Positions 28,601-56,045 of a stretch of 64,000 bases of DNA are shown here, one piece after another. The DNA lies in contig CAWCKJ010000003.1 in assembly GCA_963796105.1 (NCBI GenBank), forward strand, positions 376,353-440,352. The letters are read 5' to 3'. Below the pieces are notes generated by a model. The model had not been told where the DNA came from. It was given only the letters and a program-made list of their open reading frames with translations, and ran no database searches. The stretch is from a candidate division FCPU426 bacterium (GTDB taxonomy: Bacteria; Oederibacteriota; Muellerivitia; Muellerivitales; Muellerivitaceae). Within the stretch, counting starts at the first letter, position 1. Each line of letters starts with the position of its first letter. A program made the position numbers and the translations under genes.

Positions 28601-31600
28601 CTAAAGCACTATATCCAGCAAATTGAATGCCCCCACCGCGACCAAATCCGACCTTTCGGGTGTCGGTAACCGGTTCAAAGCCGGAATATTGGGTGTTGAA
28701 ACCGTAAGATTCCCCAGAACCTGTTGGTTTTCCGGCGCCAATCGATTCGGAACACCATTGGAAGGAGTTCCTAAAACCGCCTGGCTCTCCGAAGTAGCCC
28801 TATTATCCCTATTTGGAAGGGTTCGCGCAACTGATTCAAAGGCTGAAATTTGTGGGGTTGAAAATATGGGATTCAGCAACGGTGGAGGTTGCTGACTTGT
28901 GACGGTTTGGACTGGAGGGGCAGATGTGGCAAAAAAACCCTGACTTGAGGGTGAAAAGGTGTTCAAAGAGGCGATTTGAAGGGCACTTAGGGTTTCCTGC
29001 AACCTTTGACTCAAAGCTTTTCTACCGACTTCCCTGATCCGATCCTGAATAAGTTGGTCCTGGGTTTCCTGGCTTAAAGCATCCGGTCCGGGACCCACGT
29101 TCGGGATAATCACGAATGGTTTGGCTCCTGTCAATTGGTCCTGCGTATTCTCAGTGGTCGAACCCTGAAGAGGGGCGGAAATATTGATATTAAGGTTTGT
29201 CGTCAAGGGAACAGCCGGCAATGGGGAGGGCGCCACTAACCTGGAATGAACCGGAACTTTGTTCTCAGCGATGACCACTTCACTATTAGTCACATTGGAA
29301 AAGGTGGGTCCCTGGTTTGGTTGAAAGGGATTTAACAGCCCTGGATACGCTGCTTGTCCGGGATTGGGAATATTGGGCATCTGAGCGGGCTCCAAATTGA
29401 CATTGTTTTGAGGCGCAACGGGAGTCTGGATACCTTTTGCTCCCACTTGAGGACTCCTTCGCCTGGAATCAAGACCTATCGTTACGGGTGGATTTTGATT
29501 TGAAAATTGGTTATTTAGGGTCGGTGTTTTTCCTGGGCCAATTTCCTTATTCCCCATGGTTTCGGGATTGGGATTAGAAATGGGCTGAACAGCCTCAGGA
29601 GTTAAAGTTCGAGGATTTAGAGACTCTGTTTCCGGAAGGTTGACGGCTATTAAATTTTGATTCGAAGGCCCGCCAGCCATTACCCGAAAATTCGGCTCCC
29701 GTGTCCCTGTCAGCGCGAATTGCTTAGGTTGGTTCTGTGTACCAGCCTGAGTAGTAGGTCTCACCGCAACCGGCTGGTTTTGAGTCCTTTCAGGATTGGT
29801 TTGGGGCATTTGAACCTTGGTTTCCTTCTGTTCCTCATTGGCGGTTGTTCTCAAATTTTGATTGGCAATGGGTTGAACCGCTTCCGGAGGAGCCGGTCTT
29901 GAAGGCTGATTCGAGTTTACAGGCGCTTGATTAATGATCGGATTAGTTTGAACCGGCCCGCCCGCCACAACCCTGAAATTAGGCTCCCGAGTCGCAGTCC
30001 GAGCTGATTGCGTAGGTTGGTTCTGTGTACTTGTTTGGGAAGTAGGTCTCACCGCAACGGCCTGGTTTTGAGCCCTTCCAGGATTGGTTTGGGGCATTTG
30101 AACCTTGATTTTCGGTTGCTCCTCGTTGGGGGTCGTTCTCAAGTTTTGATTGGCAATGGGTTGGACCCCTTCCGGAGGAGCCGGTCTTGAAGGCTGATTC
30201 GAGTTTACAGACGCTTGATTAACGGCCGGATTAGTTTGAACCGGCCCACCCGCCACAACCCTGAAATTAGGCTCCTGAGTCTCAGTCCGAGCTGATTGCG
30301 CTGGTTGGTTCTGTATACCAGCCTGGGTATTAGGTCTCACCGCAACCGGCTGGTTTTTAACCCTTCCAGGATTGGCTTGGGGCGTTTGAACCCTGGTTTC
30401 CGGTTGCTCCCAGTTGGAGGTTGTTCTCAGGTTTTGATTGGCAATGGGTTGAACCGCTTCTGGAGGCGCCGGTCTCGAAGGCGGATTCTCGTTTACCGGC
30501 GTTTGATAAACGGCCGGATTAGTTTGAACCGGCCCGCCCGCCACAACCCTGAAATTAGGCTCCCGAGTCGCAGTCCGCGCGGATTGCGCTGGTTGGTTCT
30601 GTGGACCTGTTTGGGTATTAGGTCTCACCGCAACCGGTTGATTTTGAACCCCTCCAGAATTTGCATGGGGCGTTTGAACCCTAGTTTCCGGCCGCTCCTT
30701 GTTAGTAGTTGTTCTCAAGTTTTGATTGGCAATGGGTTGAACCGCTTCCGGAGGCGCCGGTCTTGAAAGCGGATTCTCGTTTACCGGAGCTTGATTAACG
30801 GCCGGATTAGATTGAACCGGCCCACCCGCCACAACCCTGAAATTAGGCTCCCGAGTCACAGTCCACGCGGGTTGCGTTGGCTGCTTCTGAGTTCCAGCCT
30901 GGATATCAGGCACCACCGCAACCGGCTGGTTTTGAATCCTTCCAGGATTGGTTTGGGGCGTTTGAGCCCTGGTTTCCGGACGCTCATTGTTGACGGTTGT
31001 TCTCGAGTTTTGATCGACAATCGGTTGGATTGTTTCAGGATTCCCTGGTTTTAGAGCCGCCCCGGAGGACTCAATCCTAGAATTGGAATTGGTCGCGGCA
31101 GGGATTACGGTTCCCCGAGCAACGGCTTGCGCGCTTTCAAATTGAAGGTTATTACTTCCGGTACCAGGTTGGATGAGATTTATTTCAACCCCGCCTTTTC
31201 CCGCCATATTGGGAAAGGCCTGGCCCCGATTAACGGGACCCTCCAAGCGTGAATGACCTGTTGTTTCCGCTGATACGGTTTTGGCATTAGCCCCGGGAAT
31301 TTTGGAATTTTCACCCACAACTCTTGAATTTCGAGCGTCATTGAAACGGTTATTGGGAAGATTTGTTTCAGCTGGATTCCCGCTGGGATGAATAATATTT
31401 TGATTACCGGCCGTCTGACCAGTCACCCCGCCCTCCATTACAGGGAAATCCTGTTTTGAAAATCGATCCGCCGGCGGAGGAAGAAGAAGATTTTTTAATT
31501 GATTCAATCCGCTTTGAAGGGTTTGAACCCCCTGGATGGCGTCTTGGATGACCATCGGGAGGGGTCCGAATTTCTGGGTTAAAAAATTAACGGCTTTTAC

Positions 31601-31756
31601 TGAAAGTTTTTCATCCCGTGACGCCTCCGGCTTGGGGTCCTGATTGATTTTCCTCAAGGCGGGGTCTGTCCCCAGAACAAGGGGTTGAACCGTTAGATCG
31701 TCCTTTCTCCTGACGGAACCGATGGAGTTATTTCCAATGAATGAGTATCCAGCCAT
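28601..31756 (-). CDS. Large Pro/Gln/Asn-rich tandem-repeat protein of unknown function located immediately downstream of flbD
   Basis: 1051 aa with no clear signal peptide. About five tandem 96-aa units (REPNFRVVAGGPVQTNPAVNQAPVNENP.SRPAPPEAVQPIANQNLRTT.N.E.PETRVQTPQ.NPGR.QNQPVAVRPNTQ.G.QNQP.QSARTAT). Unique ~235-aa N-terminal and ~300-aa C-terminal regions. Confidence 0.5.
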   Translation of the reverse strand: MAGYSFIGNNSIGSVRRKDDLTVQPLVLGTDPALRKINQDPKPEASRDEKLSVKAVNFLTQKFGPLPMVIQDAIQGVQTLQSGLNQLKNLLLPPPADRFSKQDFPVMEGGVTGQTAGNQNIIHPSGNPAETNLPNNRFNDARNSRVVGENSKIPGANAKTVSAETTGHSRLEGPVNRGQAFPNMAGKGGVEINLIQPGTGSNNLQFESAQAVARGTVIPAATNSNSRIESSGAALKPGNPETIQPIVDQNSRTTVNNERPETRAQTPQTNPGRIQNQPVAVVPDIQAGTQKQPTQPAWTVTREPNFRVVAGGPVQSNPAVNQAPVNENPLSRPAPPEAVQPIANQNLRTTTNKERPETRVQTPHANSGGVQNQPVAVRPNTQTGPQNQPAQSARTATREPNFRVVAGGPVQTNPAVYQTPVNENPPSRPAPPEAVQPIANQNLRTTSNWEQPETRVQTPQANPGRVKNQPVAVRPNTQAGIQNQPAQSARTETQEPNFRVVAGGPVQTNPAVNQASVNSNQPSRPAPPEGVQPIANQNLRTTPNEEQPKIKVQMPQTNPGRAQNQAVAVRPTSQTSTQNQPTQSARTATREPNFRVVAGGPVQTNPIINQAPVNSNQPSRPAPPEAVQPIANQNLRTTANEEQKETKVQMPQTNPERTQNQPVAVRPTTQAGTQNQPKQFALTGTREPNFRVMAGGPSNQNLIAVNLPETESLNPRTLTPEAVQPISNPNPETMGNKEIGPGKTPTLNNQFSNQNPPVTIGLDSRRRSPQVGAKGIQTPVAPQNNVNLEPAQMPNIPNPGQAAYPGLLNPFQPNQGPTFSNVTNSEVVIAENKVPVHSRLVAPSPLPAVPLTTNLNINISAPLQGSTTENTQDQLTGAKPFVIIPNVGPGPDALSQETQDQLIQDRIREVGRKALSQRLQETLSALQIASLNTFSPSSQGFFATSAPPVQTVTSQQPPPLLNPIFSTPQISAFESVARTLPNRDNRATSESQAVLGTPSNGVPNRLAPENQQVLGNLTVSTPNIPALNRLPTPERSDLVAVGAFNLLDIVL
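29600..31050. repeat. Tandem direct repeat, unit 288 bp, ~4.5-5 copies (coding repeats inside 28601..31756)
   Basis: The string ccacaaccctgaaattaggctcccgag recurs at 29966, 30254, 30542 and 30830, with a degenerate copy near 29690. Antisense ORFs at 29657, 30008, 30296 and 30791 on the plus strand are shadows of the same periodicity. Confidence 0.8.
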
Positions 31757-35267: not shown

Positions 35268-38200
35268 TTAAACCAACATATCCACCAAAGAAGTTCGCAG
35301 GGACATAGGCGCTAAAACATCAATATTTTCAAGCGTTTCAGAGGATTGGAGCGCCAAATCGGACAAATAACCCTTGTTAGAAGGGCCAAAACCTTCCCTC
35401 TGATATTGGAAATATTGGGCCAAAAGGTTCGTGGACCCGCCTTGAACATGGACTTGGAGCTGGTCAATCTGGAGGCCCGATTGGCTTAAGGCGGCCTTTA
35501 AATCGACCAAGTTATGCTGAAGGGCTTCCTTGACATCAGGATTGGACACTGTAATCCTGGCTGATACAGCCTGATCCACCAGTGAAACCTGCACGGTAAC
35601 CCGGCCTAAGTTGGCGGGGACCAATTGGAAGTTGAGCGAAGTTACCATTTTTGCATCTGCGGCGTGAGCCGTGATTTGATCCGTAACTTGCCGGAATAAC
35701 GTCACATTATCCAAAGTATTATTCTGCTGATTCAAAACCGCGTTATTCCCGGCAGACAAGATAACTTTATCAGCATCTCCATTATCCCCGGACGTTTTTA
35801 GGTTTGGATTGGTTAAGTCCTTATTCCCGGAGCCGGTCAACACGGAATTGCTTGAAATCAATTCGTTCATTTGCGAGGAATTTCCTGTGTTGGCAACTGC
35901 GATTACAGCCTGAGGCGTCAACGGTTGGACCACCGATGTAGTTTCGACATTCAAGTTGCCCAGAGAAGTATTGTCAGTAGATTTCAGCAGGTTCTGAGTT
36001 GTAACCTGAGTTTTGCTCGCGTTCAACGTTGACATTGAACCAGTCAAGTTTTGAGCGTTTGTAACCTGGGGTGCTAAGGAAGCGGGATTAAATGTTTGAT
36101 CAACAGCTTTCCTAGCGCCGGGATTACTCTGATTTTCAAGTGAATAAGCGGGATCATTGTTGGTAAGATTTTTCGAATTTCCAGGAGAATGATTGCCCAT
36201 GGAAACTGATAAATTTATTCCCGGAGATAAACTTTGCTGAGAGGCATTCGTGTTTTGCAGATCCAGGCTTGAAGCAATCAAGTTTTGTGCGGTGATATCA
36301 GAAATACTGTCACTTAAAGGATTTTCTGGAATCGAAGGGTTCGAATTATTCATTGATATTCCCTGATTCGAGGAACTATTTAGAATTATCGAAACTGGTT
36401 GAGCAGTCGATGGATTTGATTGCTTTTGTCCATTATTTTCTAAAATTGTTTGATTTTGTTCTTTAGGCTCAGATAGCAAAAGTTGATTTTCATCTTTTTG
36501 GCCGTTCAAAGAAGCAATCGGGATTTGCCGTTGTGAAGTCTGAAGCGCATCTTTCGGAATCACTGAGACTTCGGCAAAAATTGCGGTTTCGCTAAGCACT
36601 TTTGAATTTTGTGAGTTGGGCGATCCAACTTCAATATTAGGAATAATCAAGCCTGTGCTTGTCGTCAACCTTGACCGTTTGTCGCCGCCATCAATGGTTA
36701 GACCACTCTGGCCAGAAGTTTGATCATTTTGGCTCTTCACATCCGGTGTCCTTGTTACCGGCTTCGTAGGTTGCACATCAGCTAATATGTCGATTGGGGC
36801 GGAAATAACATTTGAAATTTCAGGATCGGAGATTACAGCATTCTGTTGTTGAACCGAGTTATTTATTGTTCCCACATTATTTTGCTCGTTTCCATTGTTG
36901 GGCGCAGAATTCGTTCCTGCCGGAGTAAAATTCCGGAATTGAGAAGAGTTATTAATCTTAATTGAATTTCCAACTGCTTCGCTAAAATTCAACAAATTCC
37001 TCTGGGCCAGCAAATTATTGATTTGGTTTATCTCATGCGTGTCCCACGAACCTAAAGCCTCGAAATGGCTCGGAAAACCCTTTTGATTCAAGGTTGAATT
37101 TTGCGATGCCAAGAGCGCTTCAGCATTCAAATTGTTATTTATGGTTGGAGTTTTTCCATCTTCGATCGGCAGTACAAGATTATTAACCTGAGAAGAGACA
37201 TTATTCTTAGAAGAAATTTGGCTCAAGATTGTTCCCAATTGAATATCTTGATTCTCCCGCAAAATGCTAGTCGTTTGATTTGTGGGCAAAGGACCGTCAT
37301 CGGTTTTGCCCGCAGGGATTGAAAGGTATTCATCAGGAGTTTGATGACTGGGAGCAGCTAGCAATTTTGAATCCGGCGAATTATTTTTGTTGCCATTTTG
37401 CGAGGTGTTTAAAACCACCTGATTCGCGCCAACTTTAGTAAGTAATTGAACTAAATTTTTTAAGTTTTGGACGTCATTTGAATTAGAAGTGCCGGCTTGA
37501 ACAGGTTCTTGGATTACAGTTATCGGCTGGTATTGAGTTCCATTTGCGCCCAATTCCGATAAGGTTTTCAAAACAGCATTTACCTTTTCTTGAGAAATGG
37601 TTCCATTAGTGTCCAAAGGAACTCCCGGACGGGGAGTGAATAAAAAGGGCTCTTGAATTCCATTTGTCAGGCTTTGGTTTACTTGTTGACCCGAATCAAC
37701 ACTGGCGGCAAAATCAGAAATAGTTTGATTCGTTTCGGATGTTGCACTATTGAAATTCAAGTCCTGGTTTGGCTGATTTAACAGAGTTAGCAATTGCGTG
37801 TTTTGAGACAAGATTTGCTGTAAAAGATTCCAAGCGTTGTTTTGGATCCCTGTAGAGGTCTGTATTCCAGGATTAGTTTTATCTGTCAGTTCAGCGTTTT
37901 TCAAATCGCTTAAAATTTCAGCGGCATCCGCTGAACTTATTTTTCCTCCCCCAAGCGATGCAAGAAGGTTTTGAGCTTGGGCCGGATCATTTTGAGCGAG
38001 ATTTAAAAGACGGCTAATAAATTCTTTTAAATCAGGCATCTGCTGAACCGAAGGTATTAATACAGAAGCATTGCCGTTTATTATAGCGTTCCCATGATTA
38101 TCTTGAATTAAGCCCGAATCGTTTGATTTTGAATTCTTATTGAATACAGCACTGTTGTTATCATTTGAATTACCATTACCAGATGTAAATACCTTGCCCA

Positions 38201-38327
38201 TAACGTCATCAAAAGAGTTACCCTGCGAATTGCCACCCCTAGGAGACACAATAGAACTCTTCAAGAAAGCCGAGCTCTCACTAGGTGCAGCTTGAAATAA
38301 ACTTAAAAGTTCACTGACGTTTTTCAA
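35268..38327 (-). CDS. fliK: Flagellar hook-length control protein FliK (unusually long, Asn/Gln/Ser-rich)
   Basis: 1019 aa. C-terminal LVPANLGRVTVQVSLVDQAVSARITVSNPDVKEALQHNLVDLKAALSQSGLQIDQLQV matches the FliK C-terminal (Flg_hook) domain. Position fliK-flgD-flgE is standard synteny. Confidence 0.7.
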   Translation of the reverse strand: MKNVSELLSLFQAAPSESSAFLKSSIVSPRGGNSQGNSFDDVMGKVFTSGNGNSNDNNSAVFNKNSKSNDSGLIQDNHGNAIINGNASVLIPSVQQMPDLKEFISRLLNLAQNDPAQAQNLLASLGGGKISSADAAEILSDLKNAELTDKTNPGIQTSTGIQNNAWNLLQQILSQNTQLLTLLNQPNQDLNFNSATSETNQTISDFAASVDSGQQVNQSLTNGIQEPFLFTPRPGVPLDTNGTISQEKVNAVLKTLSELGANGTQYQPITVIQEPVQAGTSNSNDVQNLKNLVQLLTKVGANQVVLNTSQNGNKNNSPDSKLLAAPSHQTPDEYLSIPAGKTDDGPLPTNQTTSILRENQDIQLGTILSQISSKNNVSSQVNNLVLPIEDGKTPTINNNLNAEALLASQNSTLNQKGFPSHFEALGSWDTHEINQINNLLAQRNLLNFSEAVGNSIKINNSSQFRNFTPAGTNSAPNNGNEQNNVGTINNSVQQQNAVISDPEISNVISAPIDILADVQPTKPVTRTPDVKSQNDQTSGQSGLTIDGGDKRSRLTTSTGLIIPNIEVGSPNSQNSKVLSETAIFAEVSVIPKDALQTSQRQIPIASLNGQKDENQLLLSEPKEQNQTILENNGQKQSNPSTAQPVSIILNSSSNQGISMNNSNPSIPENPLSDSISDITAQNLIASSLDLQNTNASQQSLSPGINLSVSMGNHSPGNSKNLTNNDPAYSLENQSNPGARKAVDQTFNPASLAPQVTNAQNLTGSMSTLNASKTQVTTQNLLKSTDNTSLGNLNVETTSVVQPLTPQAVIAVANTGNSSQMNELISSNSVLTGSGNKDLTNPNLKTSGDNGDADKVILSAGNNAVLNQQNNTLDNVTLFRQVTDQITAHAADAKMVTSLNFQLVPANLGRVTVQVSLVDQAVSARITVSNPDVKEALQHNLVDLKAALSQSGLQIDQLQVHVQGGSTNLLAQYFQYQREGFGPSNKGYLSDLALQSSETLENIDVLAPMSLRTSLVDMLV

Positions 38328-42958: not shown

Positions 42959-44080
42959 TTATATGATTTCAAGCTCCGCATGTAAGGCGCCAGCTGCTTT
43001 AATGGCTTGAAGAATTGAAATCAAATCCCTTGGGGTAGCTCCTACAGCGTTAATCGCCGAAACCACATCAATTAAAGATGCGCCCTCAGGCAAAACAATT
43101 AAATTGCCCTGTTTACCAGTATCCTCAGCGCTTAATGTAGTTGTGTGAGTTAATTCATCATGACCAAAAACAGCGTCATGGGAAATTTGTGTGGTCTTTT
43201 TAACTACTAAATGTAAATTTCCATGAGCAATTGCAACCGCTTCAATCCGAACATCTTGCCCTAGTACTACTGTTCCTGTACGCTCATTAACAACAACACG
43301 GTTTTCAGAAGAATCAGTCAAAACAGGGGTGTCTTCAACCGCTGCTATGAAATCAACGACATTATCTTTGTAATTGTTCGGGATTTTCACTTCAATTTGT
43401 CCGCCATCAGTTGCCTTTGCAACTTGTTCTCCAAATTGCTGGTTTATAGCTTGCGTGGCTAAAGAAGCCTGCCCGAAATCAGGATGATTTAATAATATTG
43501 CGATTGTGTCATTATCAATAAAAGTGGAAGGAACTTCTCGCTCCACCAAAGCACCATTTGGAACTCTCCCAGTTGATGTACTATCAACTTGAACCAATGG
43601 AAATTCACCAGTGTTGTCAGAAAATCCACCAACCGCAAGCGGACCTTGAGCAACAGCATAAACCTGTCCATCAGGCCCTTGTAGAGGGGTCATCAAAAGA
43701 ACACCCCCTTGCAAACTTCTAGCGTCCCCTACTGAAGAAACGATAACATCAATTTTATCTCCTGATTTTAACAATGGGGACAATTGTGCAGTCGCCATAA
43801 TAGCAGCAACATTTTGAGTTCTAATTTGATCCGGACCAATTTTAATTCCAAATTGATACAACATATTGGTAATGCTTTGTAACGTTGATACGACTCTCTG
43901 CGTATCACCAGTTCTTTGTAATCCAACAACCAGACCATATCCAATCAGCTGATTTTCGCGAACTCCCTTTACCTTCCCAATAGTTTTCAATCTCACCTGA
44001 GCGGCATTTAATGGCAAAAATATAAAGCATAATAAAAATACGCTTAATACAAACTTTATCCAATTTAATGATTTGTTCAT
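42959..44080 (-). CDS. flgI: Flagellar P-ring protein FlgI
   Basis: VRLKTIGKVKGVRENQLIGYGLVVGLQRTGD and full-length colinearity with FlgI. The start at 44080 (MNKSLNWIKF... signal peptide) has a GAGGAG Shine-Dalgarno, so the ORF-track start at 44119 is probably too long. Confidence 0.9.
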   Translation of the reverse strand: MNKSLNWIKFVLSVFLLCFIFLPLNAAQVRLKTIGKVKGVRENQLIGYGLVVGLQRTGDTQRVVSTLQSITNMLYQFGIKIGPDQIRTQNVAAIMATAQLSPLLKSGDKIDVIVSSVGDARSLQGGVLLMTPLQGPDGQVYAVAQGPLAVGGFSDNTGEFPLVQVDSTSTGRVPNGALVEREVPSTFIDNDTIAILLNHPDFGQASLATQAINQQFGEQVAKATDGGQIEVKIPNNYKDNVVDFIAAVEDTPVLTDSSENRVVVNERTGTVVLGQDVRIEAVAIAHGNLHLVVKKTTQISHDAVFGHDELTHTTTLSAEDTGKQGNLIVLPEGASLIDVVSAINAVGATPRDLISILQAIKAAGALHAELEII

Positions 44081-44100
44081 TCTCAGCTCCTCACTAAAAA

Positions 44101-44721
44101 CTAAAATAAACCAAGCCAACTCATTATCCTTGTCAAAATTCCAGGTTTCGCAGATTCCGATGCAGGCCCGGTGCCCGTTATTTTTATTTTCGCATTGGCG
44201 ACCCTAGAAGATAAAACCATGTTATCACGAGTAATATCATCAGGCCGGATTTCACCGGTAACTTCGATTGTTTGCTTATCGTCATTTACTTCGACATATC
44301 TATTTCCATCAATTAAATAGTTACCATTCGGAAGAACCGAAATAATTTTTGCAGTCATTTCACCCGTAATAGTTGTGCTTCTACTTGAAGTACCCTGTCC
44401 CTGATGAGCCGAACTGGCGCCGACTCCAATTTGATTATTTGTATTTAAAACATTTGCCCCGTATACGCCTGCACCCATATACCCTGTTCCAGCGCCTATA
44501 GCTAAACTGGAAGTTTTTTGGTTTTGACTACTAGCGGCCTGTGTTGCCTGTGTATCCTCTTGTATCATAACAGTTATTACATCGCCCACTCTTCTTGCTC
44601 TTTTTTCGTTATAAATTGAACTTGTTCCTTCTAAAGGGTAAAGAGAATCTGCCATCAACTTTTGAATCAAAGGCATTATTAGAATCACTATAAAAAAGAA
44701 AATCACTTTACGCATGATCAA
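44101..44721 (-). CDS. flgH: Flagellar L-ring lipoprotein FlgH
   Basis: 206 aa. Signal peptide. SLYPLEGTSSIYNEKRARRVGDVITVMIQEDTQA matches the FlgH signature (SLF....LF.D.RA...GDIITV.I.E). Confidence 0.85.
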   Translation of the reverse strand: MIMRKVIFFFIVILIMPLIQKLMADSLYPLEGTSSIYNEKRARRVGDVITVMIQEDTQATQAASSQNQKTSSLAIGAGTGYMGAGVYGANVLNTNNQIGVGASSAHQGQGTSSRSTTITGEMTAKIISVLPNGNYLIDGNRYVEVNDDKQTIEVTGEIRPDDITRDNMVLSSRVANAKIKITGTGPASESAKPGILTRIMSWLGLF

Positions 44722-44734
44722 CCCCTATCCCGAA

Positions 44735-45709
44735 CTACTGTTTTTCATCAATTAAAACAGTTTTTTCGTCTAAAACCTTCCCATGTAATACTTTACCAGA
44801 ATCCGTATTTAATACCTGAATATTATCCCCCGCTTTTCCATCAAAAAGAGCTTTTGCTTGAATGCTTAATTCTATATTTCCCTTATGGACAATCGCCTGT
44901 ATCAATTGGGCTCTTTTTATAACAGGTGGATCGTTTAGTTCACTAAGTCGAATTATTGAACCTATTGGCAATGAGTAAGCTGCTGTTCTTCCCAAAACAT
45001 TTTCTGCTTTTTGTAAAAAACCCGGAAGAATTTTTGAACTTTGCATTCTAACCAATCCAACATTAGAAGCTTTAAATTTTTCCCCTTTTTCGACCATTTT
45101 TGTTGTTGTCACAACTGATCGGTATATTTCCGAATCGACTCGCAAAGGCAATACGCGCACAATGCGACCATCCACAGATAATTCAGTCGTTAGTAATACT
45201 GAACCCTCATACTTTCCTGAAAAAGAAGGACGAAAACTTGCAGTTACGTTGCCGGCCGGTAAAACTATTTTCTTGTTCCCGCCCAATACTTTTACTTCAA
45301 CATTTGCCGGCTGGTCTTGAATTTGCTTCAAAATAAAATTTTTTATTCCAGGCAATAAACTTTGAGGTGAAAACTCTTGCCCTCGAGTCATTACTTGAAC
45401 CAATTCAGGGCCCTGAAATGCAAAATCTTCAATATTACAACCTTCTCGCCGAAGAACAATCCTAACGTATCCCTTTGTTATCTTAATAACATTACCAGCC
45501 GGCGCAGTCCTTCCGATTTTAATTTTGCTTAACTTATCAATAACCGTTTTATTGTTTCCTATTAAGTCCGCGACATCACCTAAAGTAATATCAGGCCCAA
45601 CTACATTCGTTTTTTCAACGAATTTAATTATTAATTGCCCATTTGCGGCCAGAAGCAAATTAGTAAAAGAAAAAAACACAAAAAACAAAACGGTTACTAT
45701 TTTATTCAT
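44735..45709 (-). CDS. flgA: Flagellar P-ring assembly chaperone FlgA
   Basis: 324 aa. Signal peptide. C-terminal SAF-like region (VEKGEKFKASNVGLVRMQSSKILPGFLQ...AAYSLPIGSIIRLSELNDPPVIKRAQLIQAIV...DGKAGDNIQVLNTDSGKVLHGKVLDEKTV) matches FlgA. Confidence 0.7.
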   Translation of the reverse strand: MNKIVTVLFFVFFSFTNLLLAANGQLIIKFVEKTNVVGPDITLGDVADLIGNNKTVIDKLSKIKIGRTAPAGNVIKITKGYVRIVLRREGCNIEDFAFQGPELVQVMTRGQEFSPQSLLPGIKNFILKQIQDQPANVEVKVLGGNKKIVLPAGNVTASFRPSFSGKYEGSVLLTTELSVDGRIVRVLPLRVDSEIYRSVVTTTKMVEKGEKFKASNVGLVRMQSSKILPGFLQKAENVLGRTAAYSLPIGSIIRLSELNDPPVIKRAQLIQAIVHKGNIELSIQAKALFDGKAGDNIQVLNTDSGKVLHGKVLDEKTVLIDEKQ

Positions 45710-45724
45710 GCCGCTAAATCAATA

Positions 45725-46522
45725 TCATGGAAATTGCTTCATAGTTGAAATGTCATACAGCATTGAATCGGAAGTTGAAACAGCCTTGGAATTTAACTCA
45801 TATGCCCTTTGTGCGACTATCAAATTAACCATTTCACTCACCACATCAACATTGGATGCCTCTAATTCACCCTGTTGAACTTGTGGAAAACCTACTGAAC
45901 CAGGGGTGCCTTGAATCGGCGACCCGGAAGCGGGTGTCTCTTGATAAAGATTATTTCCTAATGCCTCTAACCCCGCAGGATTAACAAAGCGAGTTAATTC
46001 AAGCTGTCCAACTTGTGCCTGTTGGGTTCCACCAGCGGTTTGGATCATAATCTGACCCGTTGCGGTTATCTGAATCTGCGAGGTATCAGCTGGAAGTTGA
46101 ACAGGGGGATCTAAAAAATACCCATTTGCAGTAACCAGATTTCCATTAGCATCCTGGGTAAATGAACCATCCCTCGTATATGCAGTAGTTCCATTAGGAA
46201 GAGTTACCTGAAAAAAACTATTATCTCCCGCAATCAACAGATCAAGAGGATTATTCGTGTTTTGGATAGGGCCTTCAGTGAAAATCCTCTGCGTGGAAAC
46301 CGGCTTGACACCTTCTCCTACTTGAAGACCTACAGGTGTGTTCGTGTCCGGAGACGTCGGATTACCAGCAGGCTTAAGATCCCGATATAAAAGATCCTGG
46401 AAATCAACTCTTTGCTTTTTAAAACCCGTTGTACTGACATTGGCAAGGTTGTTTGAAATTGTATCAATATTTAACTGTTGCGCAGCCATACCAGTTGCTG
46501 CTGTGTACAGTGACTGCATCAT
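45725..46522 (-). CDS. flgG: Flagellar distal rod protein FlgG
   Basis: 265 aa. N-terminal MQSLYTAATGMAAQQLNIDTISNNLANVSTTGFK and C-terminal ASNVDVVSEMVNLIVAQRAYELNSK are canonical. Confidence 0.9.
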   Translation of the reverse strand: MMQSLYTAATGMAAQQLNIDTISNNLANVSTTGFKKQRVDFQDLLYRDLKPAGNPTSPDTNTPVGLQVGEGVKPVSTQRIFTEGPIQNTNNPLDLLIAGDNSFFQVTLPNGTTAYTRDGSFTQDANGNLVTANGYFLDPPVQLPADTSQIQITATGQIMIQTAGGTQQAQVGQLELTRFVNPAGLEALGNNLYQETPASGSPIQGTPGSVGFPQVQQGELEASNVDVVSEMVNLIVAQRAYELNSKAVSTSDSMLYDISTMKQFP

Positions 46523-46672
46523 AAAAGCCTCCTAAAGTTCATCGCTCTGGGAATAAACAAAATAACCAGAACTCTGATTTTTTTCACCGTATCAATCGAT
46601 CCACGGTGAGAACGGTCTCCGCTTTGCAGTCCAACCGTTTTAAAACCCAAAATCAAATGATCGACAAACTTA

Positions 46673-47458
46673 TTAAACCCTTAAGGTCCCAATTTCAGTT
46701 GCAGCTTCATTTAAAACATGGTCATAAGTAGAAATAACCCTTGAATTCAACTCATAATTTCTATAAGTATCAATCATGTTTACCATTTCCATCATTGAAT
46801 TAACGTTTGATTGCTCTAAATAACCTTGCTGAACTTGAATTCCATCCGGTGAACTATCTATTTTGTTTTGTGTTTTAACCTCGAATAAAGAATGTCCAAC
46901 TTTATTGAGTTGATTTTCATTTTGAACTTTAACAATTAACAATTGATCCAAGGCTTTCCCGTCAACCATCAAATTCCCTTGTTGATCAGAAGTAACCTCA
47001 GTTCCATCAATATAAATTTCGCCATTATGTCCCAAGACCGGTAAACCATCCTTTGTTACCAGTCGCCCATTTGAATCTAAGCTAAAGTTACCATCTCGAG
47101 TTAACCAAGTTTTTCCATCTGGTCCTAAAACCGAGAAAAAACCGGAACCATTGAGTGCAAAATCAAGGGGACTTTTAGTCTCAAGGTGTGACCCTTGTGA
47201 ATAATCAGTGGTTATCGTTTGTGGTATTACTCCTCCTCCCATAACTCCAATATTTGGCCTCAACTCAGCAGTACCATCCATCACATTAATTCGTTGATCA
47301 TGAATTCTGGCAATTAAATAAGTTGGAAAAGCTACATCCACAGACCGGTTTTGCTTAAATCCAATAGTGCTGACGTTAGCCAAGTTGTTAGCAATAACGT
47401 CTTGTCGCGCAAGTGTAGAGTTCAAGCCAGATGCAGCAATGTATAGTCCGCTCGGCAC
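46673..47458 (-). CDS. flgF: Flagellar proximal rod protein FlgF (or second FlgG-type rod protein)
   Basis: 261 aa. LYIAASGLNSTLARQDVIANNLANVSTIGFK and C-terminal EQSNVNSMMEMVNMIDTYRNYELNSRVI. Confidence 0.8.
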   Translation of the reverse strand: MPSGLYIAASGLNSTLARQDVIANNLANVSTIGFKQNRSVDVAFPTYLIARIHDQRINVMDGTAELRPNIGVMGGGVIPQTITTDYSQGSHLETKSPLDFALNGSGFFSVLGPDGKTWLTRDGNFSLDSNGRLVTKDGLPVLGHNGEIYIDGTEVTSDQQGNLMVDGKALDQLLIVKVQNENQLNKVGHSLFEVKTQNKIDSSPDGIQVQQGYLEQSNVNSMMEMVNMIDTYRNYELNSRVISTYDHVLNEAATEIGTLRV

Positions 47459-47492: not shown

Positions 47493-49067
47493 TCAACGGC
47501 TATGCACTGGCACAGCAGTTCCAGCTGCTTGAATAACGGTACTATAGGGTAATGCAACAGCACTTATTTCTTTGGATCTTGAACTTTCTGTTCCATCGTT
47601 TCCAACTGTCGTTAAAGAAAAGAAATATCTTTGTCCGACTTTTAACTTCCGAACCAGATAGGTTGGAACATTACTAATGGGCTGAGCATTTACTTTTTCA
47701 AACCGCCCACCTGAAACTTCTGAAATGTAAATATTATACCCTTTTGCACTGATCTTTCCCGGATCAGCCAACCCCGCTATTCCGGCTTGCTTAGCAATAT
47801 CAATGACACCCTCATTTTGAAGCTCGCTTTGAACCACAACCGGTGCGCCAGGAGCAGATGTCGTGCCAGCTATTATCTCTCTTGAATATTGACTTTCAAC
47901 TGGAGGTACAGTATTGGTTATTGAACTTACCACAAAATAATAATGAGTATTTTTCTCTAATCCACGTAGCGAATAATAATTTGCCTTTACCGGTTTTTGG
48001 TTGATTTTTACATAACCTCCACCAGAAGTTTTAGTGAAATAAACGTTATATCCAGCCAAGGAAAGGGACGGTGAATTTACCCACCTAAGGGTAATAATAT
48101 CGCCATCCACTGATGCATTTAAACCTTCCGGAATAAAACTTTTCACTTTCCCCAAGAAAGACTCGCCAAACCGCCAATTGGCAGAGATCCGATGCGTTGC
48201 TCCTAGAAATTCAGCATGACCCATATAAGCATAATCAATTCCCCAAGATTTTGAACGATAACTGATCCCAGCAGTAAACTGTCCAGGAAGTGTCATAAAA
48301 TCACTATACCCGGTTCTGATTCCAAGTTGGTCCTCAAAAAACCAGCCTTCAATACCTGCGTGCAACAGTGTATGATCCCCTACTGTTTGGTCACTAATGC
48401 TTTCAAATTCCCAAGCTGTAACTAAATCGTCAGTAAACTCATAACTAAATCCACCCCTGACACTCAATGCAACCGGATCAACGTTTCCACCCTGCCAACG
48501 AATAGTTGTGTCCACATCTTGAGCGCATAAACCAATATTTATTTGTTTTCCATATCGAGGATTCAAAATTGGCATATGATATAGAAAACCCAGATCAAGG
48601 CCCCAACCAGTAGCTTGAAGTCCTGGTTGATTTGACGAATCCGCACCATAAAGTTTTAAATTCAGCCCGCAAGAAATAGACTTATCAATCGCTAATGGCG
48701 CTGCAAAAGACCCATAATAAATCCGTTCATTCAAGGAGCCGTCAGTAAAAAAATGTTGTTGAGTGGCAATTGCCCACGCCATTTGATCGCCAAAAGGCTG
48801 CACATACACGCCTTCAAAATCATCCTCTTTTCCGTTTAAAAGAATTGCGGCCATTCCTGATATTTCAGGGCGTAAAACTTGAACAAGACCAGCAGGATTG
48901 AAAAAAACCGCATCACCAGAATCCGCTACTGTTGTAAATGCCCCACCCATTCCCAAAGGTCGAGCACCAATACCCGTAACGCCGCCTTTAGCAAAAGTCT
49001 GTGCTTTCACAGAAGTTATCGGCAGCAAAAGCAATAATAGGATGGCAGCTAAATTCCTAATAACCAT
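47493..49067 (-). CDS. PorV-like outer-membrane beta-barrel fused to two C-terminal fibronectin type III-like domains (paralogue 3), within the flagellar rod/ring operon
   Basis: 524 aa. Signal peptide. VTGIGARPLGMGGAFTTVADSGDAVFFNPAGLVQV matches the PorV N-terminal signature. The C-terminal ~200 aa contain two Fn3-like units (IITLRWVNSPSLSLAGYNVYFTKTSGGGYVKIN...NTHYYFVVSSIT and KGYNIYISEVSGGRFEKVNAQPIS...GQRYFFSLTTV). 11-bp overlap with the upstream gene. Confidence 0.5.
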   Translation of the reverse strand: MVIRNLAAILLLLLLPITSVKAQTFAKGGVTGIGARPLGMGGAFTTVADSGDAVFFNPAGLVQVLRPEISGMAAILLNGKEDDFEGVYVQPFGDQMAWAIATQQHFFTDGSLNERIYYGSFAAPLAIDKSISCGLNLKLYGADSSNQPGLQATGWGLDLGFLYHMPILNPRYGKQINIGLCAQDVDTTIRWQGGNVDPVALSVRGGFSYEFTDDLVTAWEFESISDQTVGDHTLLHAGIEGWFFEDQLGIRTGYSDFMTLPGQFTAGISYRSKSWGIDYAYMGHAEFLGATHRISANWRFGESFLGKVKSFIPEGLNASVDGDIITLRWVNSPSLSLAGYNVYFTKTSGGGYVKINQKPVKANYYSLRGLEKNTHYYFVVSSITNTVPPVESQYSREIIAGTTSAPGAPVVVQSELQNEGVIDIAKQAGIAGLADPGKISAKGYNIYISEVSGGRFEKVNAQPISNVPTYLVRKLKVGQRYFFSLTTVGNDGTESSRSKEISAVALPYSTVIQAAGTAVPVHSR

Positions 49068-51237
49068 TCGGGCCTACCTTCTCACCATTTATATGGATGT
49101 CCGAAAGCTGCAAAAACTGTAACTGATTTATTTTCCCAACAGCAAAATTAGCAGCCACTTGGGTTGGAGTAATTATAACCAATTCATTTTTTCCATAATA
49201 TACACGAGTTGATATCTCTTTTAAACCTGTTCCTACTGAATTCACACCCGTTTTTACCACTTCTCCCGCTTCTTGGAATATATAAGGGACATATGTCAAA
49301 TGGGAACGATAATTTATAATAATAATAGCGTCCCCATTAAGGTTTTTATCAAAATGAGCATTTAGCACTTGATCTGGGTTCAAATGGTTAAATCCCATTA
49401 CCGGAACATTACCAGCTTCCGGATAACCCGTATTATTGGCAGAATCAGTCGGGTTAACATTTTTCTGCTGAGCATTAGCGGTATTGGATACTAATTCCAT
49501 GGATTCAAGCATTTTCTTGAGATTTTCCTGAGCCAAAGTTGTAAGTTTTTTCCGTTCTTGCTCAAGTAATGATTGTTGTTGTCGGCGAATGTTGATAAGT
49601 TTAGCCGAGTCTTTAATTGATCCCTCATTTACAGAGGATAATATTTCAATTGTTTGAACGGGGGTTGAACCAATATGTTCTAATTGATCTTGGACTTGAA
49701 AAGCCCAAGTATAAACACCCGGCGGTAAGGGTTGATACTCATCATCTTCACCACTCCAAAGCAATTTAGTTGTAGGTGATCCAACCCCTCTTAAACCCCT
49801 CACCAAATGGTTGTTTTTATCATAAATTAATACGCTCCAACGATTAACTGTAACATCCTCAGTTGTATCTAAATGAAATTCCGCTTTTTCACCTTGAGCA
49901 GGAAAAAATGAGGCCGGTTGAACATAAGCTCCTACTTTAGGTGGCGGCAACTCCTCTCCTCCGCCAAAGCGATAAGCCATTCCAATATAAAAATTCTCAA
50001 AATTTATACCACCCGTGTCATATGAACCAATAGCTGATCCCGCTGTTACACTCGCAGAAGGAGAAACTGGCAAAAGATAAGCCGCATCTGTTTGAAAATC
50101 TCCGTTGAAAGCTCTTAAGCTTAATCCTAATGAAAAAATTCCGGGACGACTTAAAGGCGTTGAATAACCCCCACGTACGGCCATAACGTCCCTAAAAAAC
50201 CAGAATTCTGTTCCGAAACGAAGATATTTATTATCGGAATCCGAAAATCTCGGATCAGAAATTTGGTCAAAATCAATTGCAGTAATATTTCGTATTTTAA
50301 ATAAGTAAGCATTTTTATACGCAAATCCTAATGTGATTTCTGGCGGAATGTTAGCTTGATATCCTGGTCCCACATTAAAAGTAATGGGGGTAGCACCAGG
50401 AGGAATGTACAAGATATTAGAACCCGCAGTTAGGCCATTTGGATATTGCGCCAAACCCACTAAATCGTTCAAAGCTAAACCAATTCTAAATTCCTCTGAA
50501 TATTTAGTTATTGGAATTCTATAAAGGATACCAACATCCACTCCAAATCCGGTAACTTGAGTCGCATTATTAAGTGCCTTTGCCAAACTAGGGTCATTTC
50601 CAAAATATCGTATGTAATAAGGATCGTTTGTAATTCTTTTTATATTAACTCCAACCGAAAAATTCCTAACAGCAGAAAAACGAGCCGCATAAGAAAGAAG
50701 AATTTCACTTTGTTGAAAACTCGGATTTTGAAGATAACTAAATTGCGACGATGTCGGTTGATCTAAAAAATTATTTCCAATATATAAATTGCGTTGATCG
50801 TGAAAGGGCCGGAAAAGAGATATCCCTAATGTATTTTCTTTTGCAAGTGGAGCAATAAATTGGAAGGAAGCGTACCATGGAAATCCAAATCCAGGCTTTC
50901 CATTAACCTTGTCCATGAAATAATCGGGAGCACTTGAGATTGATAATTCGTAAGATGAAAGCTGAGCCAAACCAGCAACATTCCAATAAGCTGCTGATGC
51001 ATCATCCGAAATTGCGACAAATGCCCCACCCATTCCAATAGCCCTGGGACCAATTCCTGAGGTTTCCTTCCATCCGAAAATAGGGTTGATCGTTTGAGAA
51101 TAAGCAACATTTGCAAATAAAATAATAAATAAAAAACCAATTAATAAATTAAGATTTCGTTTATGCGCATTCGAGTACCGAATAATTCTTTTATTTAATT
51201 TTTGCACCTTTATCATCACCCTTCTTGTTTTACCCAA
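49057..51237 (-). CDS. Large PorV-like outer-membrane beta-barrel protein with C-terminal extension (paralogue 4), within the flagellar operon
   Basis: 726 aa. Signal/TM segment then TSGIGPRAIGMGGAFVAISDDASAAYWNVAGLAQL matches the PorV-like motif. ~400-aa barrel region, then ~300-aa C-terminal region of unknown fold. Confidence 0.45.
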   Translation of the reverse strand: MGKTRRVMIKVQKLNKRIIRYSNAHKRNLNLLIGFLFIILFANVAYSQTINPIFGWKETSGIGPRAIGMGGAFVAISDDASAAYWNVAGLAQLSSYELSISSAPDYFMDKVNGKPGFGFPWYASFQFIAPLAKENTLGISLFRPFHDQRNLYIGNNFLDQPTSSQFSYLQNPSFQQSEILLSYAARFSAVRNFSVGVNIKRITNDPYYIRYFGNDPSLAKALNNATQVTGFGVDVGILYRIPITKYSEEFRIGLALNDLVGLAQYPNGLTAGSNILYIPPGATPITFNVGPGYQANIPPEITLGFAYKNAYLFKIRNITAIDFDQISDPRFSDSDNKYLRFGTEFWFFRDVMAVRGGYSTPLSRPGIFSLGLSLRAFNGDFQTDAAYLLPVSPSASVTAGSAIGSYDTGGINFENFYIGMAYRFGGGEELPPPKVGAYVQPASFFPAQGEKAEFHLDTTEDVTVNRWSVLIYDKNNHLVRGLRGVGSPTTKLLWSGEDDEYQPLPPGVYTWAFQVQDQLEHIGSTPVQTIEILSSVNEGSIKDSAKLINIRRQQQSLLEQERKKLTTLAQENLKKMLESMELVSNTANAQQKNVNPTDSANNTGYPEAGNVPVMGFNHLNPDQVLNAHFDKNLNGDAIIIINYRSHLTYVPYIFQEAGEVVKTGVNSVGTGLKEISTRVYYGKNELVIITPTQVAANFAVGKINQLQFLQLSDIHINGEKVGPNGY

Positions 51238-51268: not shown

Positions 51269-51568
51269 TTATTTCACTTTTTCGCCAGTATCTGTTTTGT
51301 AAATCGCCACCAAAATTTCCGCAACAATTTGATATAGGTTAGATGGTATATCTTGGTTTATGTTTAGTTTATCGAGCATATCGACAAGTAACCTGTCTTC
51401 TAAAACAGGAACTCCATTTTTTTTTGCGATATTTATTAATCTTTCCGCAATCATCCCTTTCCCTTTTGCAATAATGCGTGGTGCAGGCATTGTTTTCTTA
51501 TCATACCTAAGTGCGATAGCAGTTTTACGAAGAATTCTCTTTCGCGGCAAAGATTCCGGAGGGCTCAA
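51269..51568 (-). CDS. FlhB C-terminal domain-like protein (EscU/YscU/FlhB substrate-switch domain paralogue, YlqH-like)
   Basis: 99 aa. KTAIALRYDKKTMPAPRIIAKGKGMIAERLINIAKKNGVPVLEDRLLVDML...IPSNLYQIVAEILVAIYK parallels the stand-alone FlhB-C domain family (KAVAL.YD....AP.VVAKGKG..AE.I...A.E.GIP..ED). Confidence 0.75.
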   Translation of the reverse strand: MSPPESLPRKRILRKTAIALRYDKKTMPAPRIIAKGKGMIAERLINIAKKNGVPVLEDRLLVDMLDKLNINQDIPSNLYQIVAEILVAIYKTDTGEKVK

Positions 51569-51721
51569 ACCTCATCCAATCCATTTCAGTAGTGGCCCTA
51601 CAGGGACACTTATTCCCGCTTCAAAACAATGGTTATACTCATAAATTAAAAAACAGTTTATCTTATAAATTTTACTCTAAACGCATTTTATATCTCATTG
51701 TTTAACCCTTTTCCATTTTAG

Positions 51722-51880
51722 AAGTGAAACATCTCCACGGGCGTAAAGGTCGGGGCTTCGGGCCGTGGTGGGATCTAAAAACAAGAGCAAATCAAAGTTC
51801 CTCACCTGCGGACCGCCTAAACCCGTCAGCCCTCCGAGCTGCCATTCATCCCTAGGTTTAAAAGCCTGGGGATTAACTGG
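51722..51880. other. GC-rich (~60% GC) structured segment inside a ~33% GC intergenic leader; candidate cis-regulatory RNA or small ncRNA
   Basis: Contains nested complementary blocks: ccacgg...ccgtgg enclosing ggggcttcgggcc; gaccgcctaaacccgtcagccctccgagctgcc; and the hairpin cctaggtttaaaagcctggg followed by a T-rich tract. Its composition is sharply discordant with its flanks. Confidence 0.25.
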
Positions 51881-51941
51881 CGATTTTTAATAGACTAACT
51901 TTATTTATCATGAATTGACAAAATAAGGTTTTACTTTAAGC

Positions 51942-55796: not shown

Positions 55797-56045
55797 AACA
55801 ACTCCTCTAATTCATTTTTTAAACATTTTTATTTTTTTCAACATCAATTATCAAACTTGCTTTGACTCACTTTTTGTTATACCCATTTTCATCATACCAG
55901 TTAAGTGAATTTTAAGGCATGAAGAAAATCTTTATAATCGTTAAAAAATAAATAAATTAAAATATAAAATAAATTTCACAAGATTCACTCCAATAAACCA
56001 ATCCGAAACTTCTCAGGAACCGCCAGAAATAAATCACTTTAGAAT

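Follow-up and report, generated by a model that had tools for sequence, protein, structure and literature searches.

A pair of PorV-like outer-membrane barrel proteins encoded ahead of the flagellar rod and ring genes in candidate division FCPU426

In this study, we report two outer-membrane proteins, PV726 and PV524, from an uncultured bacterium of candidate division FCPU426, which are paralogous 14-stranded barrels of the FadL superfamily, PorV/PorQ-like by profile and by fold, and whose genes lead into the flagellar genes flgF-flgG-flgA-flgH-flgI. A flagellar outer-membrane accessory is considered the best reading of the pair because this linkage is conserved far beyond the source genome. 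We put at about even the chance that the two proteins form an outer-membrane-anchored accessory scaffold around the L and P rings, whose contact with the motor we infer. Flagellar motors have diversified through lineage-specific periplasmic and outer-membrane structures, and to our knowledge the characterised lineage-specific additions are all lipoproteins or soluble proteins and come from a few cultivated phyla.

Gene order and transcription of the locus

The pair was located between a stand-alone FlhB C-terminal-domain gene and flgF in the window, that is, the whole stretch of 64,000 nucleotides analysed here, and the block from flgF to flgI lies directly downstream of it (Table 1). The calls of flgA, flgH and flgI were based on window translations, tblastn synteny and the ChapFlgA, FlgH and FlgI Pfam labels of the orthologues in related loci. 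For PV726, the public annotation places the start 10 codons downstream of the TTG given in Table 1, at a GTG (51207), and the resulting protein of 716 aa is likely the true product.

Table 1. Features of the PV726/PV524 locus, with positions in the window
Feature	Position	Strand	Remarks
flhB C-terminal-domain gene (flhB_rel/YlqH-like; flhBc)	51269-51568	-	Bac_export_2 E 1.2e-20; TIGR00789 E 1.3e-26
PV726, large PorV-like barrel protein	49057-51237	-	726 aa from TTG
PV726 N-terminal hatch motif, residues 58-95	50953-51066	-	GIGPRAIGMGGAF..DDASAAYWNVAGL
PV726 14-stranded β-barrel, residues 96-424	49966-50952	-	β-signal-like end ...AYRF
PV726 FlgD_ig-type Ig-like domain, residues 434-532	49642-49938	-	Pfam FlgD_ig E 0.003; predicted periplasmic
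PV726 long α-helix 544-578 and disordered linker 579-610	49408-49608	-	AF2
PV726 C-terminal α/β domain, residues 612-726	49060-49404	-	AF2 pLDDT 88-96
PV524, small PorV-like barrel protein	47493-49067	-	524 aa from ATG
PV524 signal peptide, residues 1-22, then hatch		-	
PV524 14-stranded barrel, residues 68-299	48171-48866	-	
PV524 Fn3 domain 1, about residues 313-401	47865-48131	-	
PV524 Fn3 domain 2, about residues 417-505	47553-47819	-	
flgF-flgG-flgA-flgH-flgI block	42959-47458	-	
flgF (distal rod)	46673-47458	-	NCBIfam and Pfam
flgG (distal rod)	45725-46522	-	NCBIfam and Pfam
flgA (P-ring chaperone)	44735-45709	-	translation, synteny, Pfam of orthologues
flgH (L ring)	44101-44721	-	translation, synteny, Pfam of orthologues
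flgI (P ring)	42959-44119	-	translation, synteny, Pfam of orthologues

The stop of PV726 and the start of PV524 overlap by 11 nt (ATGGTTATTAG), and flgF begins 34 nt after the stop of PV524, at a GTG with a GGAG ribosome-binding site ahead of it. Terminator-like hairpins were not enriched in the region (10 found, 12.1 expected from shuffled sequence), and an Rfam search of the flagellar region at gathering thresholds found no RNA. The overlap, the spacing and the hairpin count agree with the claim of a preliminary description of this DNA that the two genes are, almost certainly, transcribed together with those of the rod and rings.

In some clades, the operon opens with the pair, preceded by a promoter of the sigma-70 type; in clade B, this promoter (TTGACA-N14-TGTTAAAT) stands directly upstream of the large barrel gene. 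A simple pattern search identified no sigma-28-like site upstream of the pair (clades B-D) or of flhBc in the window; a sigma-54-like pattern was matched once (L089).

Fold and domain architecture of PV726 and PV524

The PorV_fam profile of NCBIfam was the best match of both proteins (PV726, E 7.4e-25; PV524, E 1.3e-15) and was also matched by 11 of 11 divergent homologues, with a best E of 5.6e-30; moreover, two relatives carry the NCBI name 'PorV/PorQ family protein'. The cut-off of the PorV/PorQ family model NF033709 (90 bits) was narrowly missed by PV726 (88.2 bits) and also missed by PV524 (57.8 bits). Scores against the equivalog models were far below the cut-offs, PV726 reaching only 26.5 bits with the PorV model NF033710 (cut-off 250 bits) and the best relative only 31.5 bits with the PorQ model NF033711 (cut-off 220 bits). 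A search of the full-length family profile against PDB sequences gave no match. In the AF2 models (pLDDT 81 for PV726 and 83.7 for PV524), each barrel has 14 strands of the FadL type and an N-terminal hatch, and PorV was the top solved structure for both proteins, the best Foldseek hit of PV524 being 6h3i_F. Each protein has a Sec signal peptide, a FadL/PorV-type hatch and a barrel that ends in a BAM β-signal-like motif (…YRF or …WRF). The profile searches and the structure prediction proposed in the preliminary description therefore bear out its assignment of the two proteins as PorV-like outer-membrane barrels.

The N-terminal signature, which had been taken as specific to PorV, appears to be a general FadL-superfamily hatch. 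The weak Pfam matches to Toluene_X (PF03349, FadL/TodX) and UPF0164 coincide exactly with this stretch; Toluene_X scored 13.6 bits against a cut-off of 29.7, over residues 63-101 only. The motif itself, G-x-G-M-G-G-A ... N-P-A-G-L, is one that we take to be common to the superfamily, and in PV726 of the window it reads N-V-A instead of N-P-A. Across the deep clades, the hatch is the best-conserved region of PV726 (majority fraction 0.70), followed by the FlgD_ig-type domain (0.53), and these two and the C-terminal domain are better conserved than the surface loops.

FlgD-family NCBIfam matches were found in 5 of 11 divergent members, down to E 2.6e-7. The helix that follows the Ig-like domain (35 residues) and the linker (pLDDT <50) are poorly conserved and vary in length between clades. 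The 115 residues of the C-terminal domain are arranged in the order β-β-α-β-β-α-α-β-β and have no match in Pfam or among PDB sequences; in a set of 1.84 billion representatives, the domain was found only at the end of barrel fusions of 650-750 aa or in short fragments. By sequence, it appears to be a novel domain specific to this family.

Two fn3 stretches were identified in the C-terminal half of PV524 (Pfam fn3 E 1.8e-9). One barrel had been described as fused to Fn3 domains; this holds for the 524-aa protein, but the 726-aa protein is also extended, by the Ig-like domain, helix, linker and novel domain. The statement that such a fusion is not a described PorV architecture was overstated: barrels joined to Fn3 or Ig domains are common in public sequence data. 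Unlinked barrel-Fn3 paralogues are present in genomes that carry the pair, for example at L028, where a protein with a barrel, Fn3 and TPR is encoded between rsfS and purA, a housekeeping context.

As evidence on topology, long variable loops alternate with short turns. A sister family (P0299, P0303, P0316, P0319 and P0325) has the barrel-Ig-helix layout of PV726 and ends in OmpA_C, a peptidoglycan-binding domain that stands where PV726 has its novel domain. Because the sister family carries this domain there, the extensions of PV726 and PV524 were placed in the periplasm, and the C-terminal modules of both proteins are predicted to be periplasmic and not surface-exposed. OmpA-type proteins and the sister family (P0299, P0303, P0316) likewise combine a barrel at the N-terminus with a C-terminal module in the periplasm; however, OmpA_C is absent from PV726, which ends in the novel α/β domain, and from PV524, which ends in Fn3, and the sister-family locus L091, unlike that of the pair, is not flagellar. 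An inverse autotransporter with Ig/Fn3 passengers at the surface was also considered and was rejected on the 14-strand barrel, the hatch-filled lumen and the OmpA domain at the same site in the sister family.

Conservation of the linkage across clades

A synteny survey, also proposed in the preliminary description, showed that the pair recurs ahead of flgF far beyond the source genome. The order pair-flgF-flgG-flgA-flgH-flgI was found in more than 35 loci from five deep clades (A, A', B, B' and C), down to 22-30% identity. The complete arrangement with flhBc in front was found unbroken in the FCPU426 genomes at species level (L001-L025 and L055), as far as the contigs reach, and in four metagenome contigs (L095-L098). 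The position between the flhB C-domain gene and flgF was correctly described for the window, but this gene directly precedes the pair only in the clade of the window and its nearest sister (A and A'; L001-L025, L088), and the constant neighbour of the pair across clades is flgF. Among clades B and B', at 25-30% identity, the pair stands at the head of flgF-flgK, and the genes upstream of it are unrelated (L080, L083, L084, a JGI contig, L093 and L094). In clade C, the pair of L090 and of L103 also leads into flgF; a gap of 541 nt separates the two in L090, which counts against the accessory reading. There are two exceptions to the linkage, which likewise count against the accessory reading: in a complete genome of 2.88 Mb (L086/L087), the pair lies between metK/ahcY and ribD with no adjacent flagellar genes, and in L082 (GCA_975905565.1) it lies beside DUF11 surface-protein genes, again with no flagellar genes.

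Possible roles of the pair

Accessory rings associated with the outer membrane are known from other flagella and protect the membrane during rotation (PMC11756786, PMC12222027). The Vibrio H ring (FlgT/FlgO/FlgP), the Campylobacter basal disk (FlgP/FlgQ) and Helicobacter FapH surround the L and P rings at the level of the outer membrane or beneath it, and a role in bracing the bushing or shielding the membrane has been proposed for them (PMC12222027, PMC11756786); the known accessories are lipoproteins or soluble periplasmic proteins with SHS2-like folds (PMC12222027). Like PV726 and PV524, these structures are lineage-specific and encoded with flagellar genes, and such operon linkage is seen for the pair in all five clades, apart from the two exceptions. 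In contrast, the pair consists of integral β-barrels and has no kinship in sequence or fold with these accessories, whose place in the motor has been shown, whereas that of PV726 and PV524 is deduced. Searches of Pfam and NCBIfam with the full-length proteins revealed no homology to FlgT, FlgO, FlgP, FlgQ or FapH at E up to 0.01, and the barrel and C-terminal segments scanned separately matched no known flagellar accessory family at E up to 5-10. No relevant paper linking PorV or FadL barrels to the flagellar basal body was found and, because all organisms that bear the pair are uncultured, no image of their motors exists.

As flagellar accessories, PV726 and PV524 would be made from one transcript with FlgF, FlgG, FlgA, FlgH and FlgI. 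Both barrels would sit in the outer membrane surrounding the L ring, and their periplasmic domains would encircle the L/P-ring bushing as a strut or collar, steadying it and the membrane around it while the motor rotates. The helix of PV726 (about 5 nm) and its linker could bring the C-terminal domain to the depth of the peptidoglycan and the P ring. The pair would then be a functional analogue of the H ring, the basal disk and FapH, anchored by integral β-barrels and not by lipoproteins. A more specific form of this proposal, in which the barrels build an outer-membrane-integral ring or collar of the basal body, as the first β-barrel outer-membrane proteins known to be structural components of a flagellar motor, and the C-terminal domain of PV726 docks on the P ring or the peptidoglycan, is offered tentatively and is somewhat doubtful.

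The pair may instead be OmpA-like struts that join the outer membrane to the peptidoglycan, with a housekeeping role in the envelope, its position before flgF reflecting inherited order or convenient co-expression. The genuine OmpA_C end of the sister family on the same barrel-Ig-helix layout, the housekeeping surroundings of the pair in L086/L087 and of the barrel-Fn3-TPR paralogue in L028, and the clade B promoter, which is of the sigma-70 type and not of the flagellar sigma-28 or sigma-54 types, would all suit such a role. We nevertheless consider it unlikely, since PV726 ends in a domain that is unlike OmpA and matches nothing elsewhere, and since linkage to flgF has been kept in spite of deep divergence and the complete replacement of the upstream neighbours, a persistence that would be difficult to account for if co-expression were not under selection.

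Of two further explanations, a T9SS-type anchor or shuttle is improbable and a FadL-like channel very improbable. In the former, the barrels would bind Ig-like C-terminal sorting domains (CTDs), for example those of DUF11 fibre proteins, and hold them at the surface, with expression tied to motility. PorV is the nearest profile and the nearest structure, and PorV/PorQ (6H3I chain F, 8GL6 chain F; NF033709) are likewise 14-stranded barrels with an N-terminal hatch. Additionally, the neighbours of the pair in clade C encode small DUF11/CLIPPER proteins and a giant DUF11 protein with FlgD_ig/CTD-like repeats at its end (L082, L085, L090), and a surface protein of 1265 aa in the window has a weak type A sorting domain (Por_Secre_tail, 19.1 bits; cut-off 23). 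However, the equivalog cut-offs are missed by a wide margin, cargo-like genes are absent beside the pair in clades A and B, and no core gene (SprA, PorK/L/M/N) was seen within the loci of about 20 kb. The CTDs of T9SS cargo bind the outer face of PorV, whereas the Ig and Fn3 domains joined to the barrels are predicted to lie in the periplasm, and the Ig domain of PV726 is no closer to CTDs than to generic Fn3 or PKD domains. Unlike PorV, the two proteins carry C-terminal periplasmic modules, are linked to flgF-flgI and not to T9SS genes, and belong to FCPU426 and not to Bacteroidota. In this clade, nothing ties the pair to T9SS cargo display, and the coupling to such display raised in the preliminary description was not supported.

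As channels, the barrels would import or export a lipid, a signal or another small hydrophobic compound needed at the flagellar base, which the periplasmic domains would hand over. PV726 and PV524 have the superfamily fold and hatch motif in common with the FadL/TodX channels, but the profile match is below the cut-off and confined to the hatch, PV726 of the window has N-V-A where the motif has N-P-A, and the pair has no transport context and no linked lipid-handling genes. Moreover, PorV and BamG-type barrels have the FadL fold, yet are not transporters. As flagellar accessories, PV726 and PV524 would, like PorV, PorQ and the BamG of Bacteroidota, not be transporters but serve a larger outer-membrane machine as structural partners.

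Such an accessory role would extend an emerging theme, that FadL-like barrels serve as accessory subunits of outer-membrane machines; if the barrels do build a ring or collar of the basal body, the FadL/PorV barrel would be a bolt-on subunit taken up more than once by large outer-membrane machines, in the T9SS translocon, the BAM of Bacteroidota and the flagellum. The two proteins and the one orphan domain are concrete targets for complex structure prediction and for imaging environmental cells by cryo-ET. Should the link be one of co-expression only, the pair would still be an undescribed family of OmpA-like envelope struts. As a flagellar accessory, a conserved pair of integral barrels at the start of the rod and ring operon in an uncultured phylum would represent a new structural way to brace the bushing within the outer membrane.

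Gene order of the flagellar run

The window carries, from 32 to 64 kb, a long minus-strand run of flagellar genes (Table). Both flagged open reading frames, PV726 and PV524 (named for the lengths of their products; together, the pair), proved to be real; the public gene call for PV726 starts at a GTG ten codons after the TTG used here. The ATG of PV524 lies within the last codons of PV726 (ATGGTTATTAG), giving an 11-nt overlap, and the GTG start of flgF, preceded by a GGAG site, is located 34 nt from the PV524 stop. Terminator-like hairpins were not enriched (10 found, 12.1 expected from shuffles). Taken together, the overlap, the short gap and the hairpin counts lead naturally to the inference that the pair would be co-transcribed with flgF and the following genes.

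Features of the window and of related loci (L numbers)
Feature	Position	Strand	Remarks
fliN/Y, fliO, fliP, fliQ, fliR, flhB, flhA, flhF	run to flgK 63974 -> 38338	-	head of the run, in this order
135-aa membrane protein, fliA, FapA-family protein, two small unknown ORFs		-	after flhF, in this order
flhF to 135-aa ORF gap	55797-56045
205-aa ORF to flhBc gap	51569-51941
flhBc (stand-alone FlhB C-domain gene)	51269-51568	-	just ahead of the pair
PV726	49057-51237	-	726 aa from TTG
PV524	47493-49067	-
flgF, flgG, flgA, flgH, flgI, flgJ, zinc-ribbon protein, flgM, flgN, flgK		-	after the pair, in this order
FliK-like gene	35268-38327	-	farther downstream of flgK; 1019 aa
flgD, flgE			farther downstream of flgK
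1051-aa protein	28601-31756	-	just downstream of flgE
1265-aa predicted surface protein	16672-20469	+	choice-of-anchor D domain
419-aa protein	14224-15483	-	weak matches to trimeric autotransporter adhesins YadA, BimA (E 2e-17 to 6e-12, far below cut-offs)
Clade B promoter/5'-UTR regions	L080 7720-7892; L084 7730-7819; L093 700-809; L083 about 7640-7772
Clade C DUF11/CLIPPER array	L082 11687-21361; L085 1815-2974; L090 18-3312
Barrel-Ig-OmpA_C family member	L091 769-2712		adjoins AsmA/DUF748-family gene

Between flhF and the 135-aa ORF, 20 related loci carry flhG, the gene of a MinD-like regulator of flagellar number, and an AT-rich gap of 250 nt is all that the window has there; nine of these 20 loci also have a PilZ-domain gene at the flhG position, and neither gene turned up in the rest of the 64 kb. 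Seventeen related loci have, between the 205-aa ORF and flhBc, a conserved ORF of 183-238 aa, function unknown, of which the 373-nt gap of the window holds no trace; this gap includes a patch that looks GC-rich by eye, and Rfam gave no match at gathering scores. In the FliK-like protein, which is of unusual length, the Flg_hook domain is confined to residues 891-966. The 1051-aa protein, without an NCBIfam match, consists of Q/P/N/T-rich repeats of roughly 80 residues (…REPNFRVVAGGPVQTNP…). In the gltB/gltD and tgt region (1-22000) the G+C content is about 0.50-0.63; it drops to 0.33-0.43 in the flagellar region (36000-64000), and ranges widely (0.36-0.66) among intergenic samples of related flagellar loci.

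Fold and predicted topology of the barrels

The PorV/PorQ family model of NCBIfam (cut-off 90) was the top profile for the barrels, with 88.2 bits (E 7.4e-25) for PV726 and 57.8 bits (E 1.3e-15) for PV524; the equivalog models of PorV and PorQ proper were missed widely (26.5 bits vs 250). Pfam had nothing better than weak matches to TraF_2, UPF0164 and FadL/TodX, the last two restricted to the N-terminal motif. Structures were predicted using AlphaFold2 from family alignments, giving confident models, and a Foldseek search identified PorV of the Flavobacterium type IX secretion (T9SS) translocon as the best solved structure for both. Based on the profile and structure matches, both barrels are FadL-superfamily members nearest to PorV/PorQ, in agreement with the preliminary description; the N-terminal motif, taken there as a PorV signature, looks instead like the hatch motif of the superfamily.

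In the PV524 model (pLDDT 83.7), two Fn3 domains follow a 14-stranded barrel (residues 68-299). In PV726 (pLDDT 81), residues 96-424 form the 14-stranded barrel, 434-532 an Ig-like domain, 544-578 a helix of 35 residues and 579-610 a disordered linker, which leads to a compact alpha/beta domain (about 612-726). Pfam assigns the Ig-like domain to the FlgD_ig type (E 0.003), and FlgD-family NCBIfam models matched 5 of 11 divergent homologues, with E values reaching 2.6e-7. The C-terminal domain has no counterpart in Pfam or among PDB sequences; an exhaustive phmmer search of 1.84 billion representatives found it solely as the last domain of barrel fusions of 650-750 aa and in short fragments, and these hits make up roughly ten 50%-identity clusters. 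The Ig domain on its own, by contrast, recurs commonly as a repeat within very large proteins.

Long, poorly conserved loops alternate with short turns in both models, the standard pattern of outer-membrane proteins, and both barrels terminate in a beta-signal-like ...YRF or ...WRF. Because the barrels have 14 strands, the chain is predicted to exit on the periplasmic side. A sister family (P0299, P0303, P0316, P0319, P0325) shares the barrel-Ig-helix layout and ends in a bona fide OmpA_C domain (E 4e-27), and this peptidoglycan-binding domain lends independent support to periplasmic extensions. Conservation across deep clades was 0.70 in the hatch, 0.53 in the Ig domain and 0.44 in the C-terminal domain, and lower in the surface loops (0.28-0.41, many gapped); combined with the topology, this suggests that the conserved business end of the barrels faces the periplasm. 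The sister proteins represent a wider, apparently undescribed family that combines a PorV-like barrel with one or more FlgD_ig/CHU_C-like Ig domains and OmpA_C.

Distribution and context of the pair

Clades of the large protein were defined by pairwise identity. In clade A (50-77% to the window), the order flhBc-PV726-PV524-flgF-flgG-flgA-flgH-flgI is unbroken wherever a locus extends far enough to reveal it (L001-L011, L013, L015-L020, L022, L023 and metagenome contigs L095-L098), and clade A' (30-36%; L024, L025 with L055, L088) retains flhBc upstream and flgF downstream. In clades B/B' (25-29%; L080, L083, L084, L093, L094 and a JGI contig) the operon begins with the pair, which lies between unrelated upstream genes (miaA, MFS transporter, pyruvate kinase, transposase) and flgF through flgK. 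In clade C (about 22%) it leads into flgF-flgI in L090 and L103, and in L082 adjoins DUF11/CLIPPER genes without flagellar genes; in clade D (27%; complete 2.88-Mb genome) it lies between metK/ahcY and ribD. With two exceptions, the linkage to flgF thus persists although the sequences have diverged almost completely and the genes upstream have been entirely replaced. Of the position between flhBc and flgF described earlier, the flgF side recurs in clades A, A', B, B' and C, whereas the flhBc side holds for clades A and A' and fails in B/B'. The same genomes also have unlinked paralogues, a barrel with one Fn3, in housekeeping contexts, so the barrel-Fn3 architecture is not exclusive to flagellar loci. 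A scan of one genome per species assigned the window to candidate division FCPU426; a few MAGs with the same locus were labelled Proteobacteria or Firestonebacteria.

A canonical TTGACA-N14-TGTTAAAT promoter was found just upstream of the large barrel gene in clades B/B'; the one shared in clade B is of sigma-70 type with an extended -10 (TGTTAAAT). L080, L084 and L093 have in common a 5'-UTR element, the palindrome GTTGCAAC followed by TTTTTTA(T/C)ATATTGGAA, ahead of a GGAGGA ribosome-binding site, which could be a regulator binding site.

In clade C, small DUF11/CLIPPER proteins (about 175-210 aa) are encoded in an array flanking the pair; they share an N-terminal motif resembling T-G-T-L-L-T-N-x-A-S-A-T-Y, and the array also encodes a giant DUF11 protein bearing terminal FlgD_ig/T9SS-CTD-like repeats. 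In L090 the block is directly upstream of the pair and flgF. A T9SS type A sorting domain scores below threshold in the 1265-aa protein of the window (19.1 bits, cut-off 23), a hint that the host organism may employ T9SS-type sorting signals.

Proposed role at the basal body

Based on fold, topology and gene order, we propose, with about an even chance of being right, that the pair serves the basal body as an accessory anchored in the outer membrane. The barrels would be embedded there beside the L ring, with the Fn3 and Ig domains along the L/P-ring (FlgH/FlgI) bushing, and the helix, linker and C-terminal domain of PV726 would extend as deep as the peptidoglycan and P ring, where the sister family has its OmpA domain. 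Such an assembly might brace the bushing or keep the membrane intact during rotation, as has been proposed for the H ring, basal disk and FapH (PMC12222027, PMC11756786). Those are unrelated lipoproteins or SHS2-fold proteins, so the pair would be an analogue, not a homologue.

The sister family with OmpA_C, the clade D context and the sigma-70-type promoter would also suit a general OmpA-like envelope strut merely co-expressed with flagellar genes, which we consider unlikely. It is less probable still that the barrels act like PorV/PorQ and anchor surface proteins bearing Ig-like sorting domains: the DUF11 neighbours in clade C and the weak T9SS-type tail in the window point towards this reading, but the predicted periplasmic topology of the modules argues against it, as do clades A and B, which have no cargo genes next to the pair. 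A FadL-like channel appears very improbable.

Database records leave these proteins without a name or call them 'hypothetical' or 'PorV/PorQ family protein'. Full-text searches yielded no publication that connects PorV or FadL barrels with flagellar motors, and, by title and abstract, none of the FCPU426 literature found concerns flagella or motility. The pair would represent a new, putative lineage-specific flagellar accessory, a PorV-like barrel with a new domain architecture.
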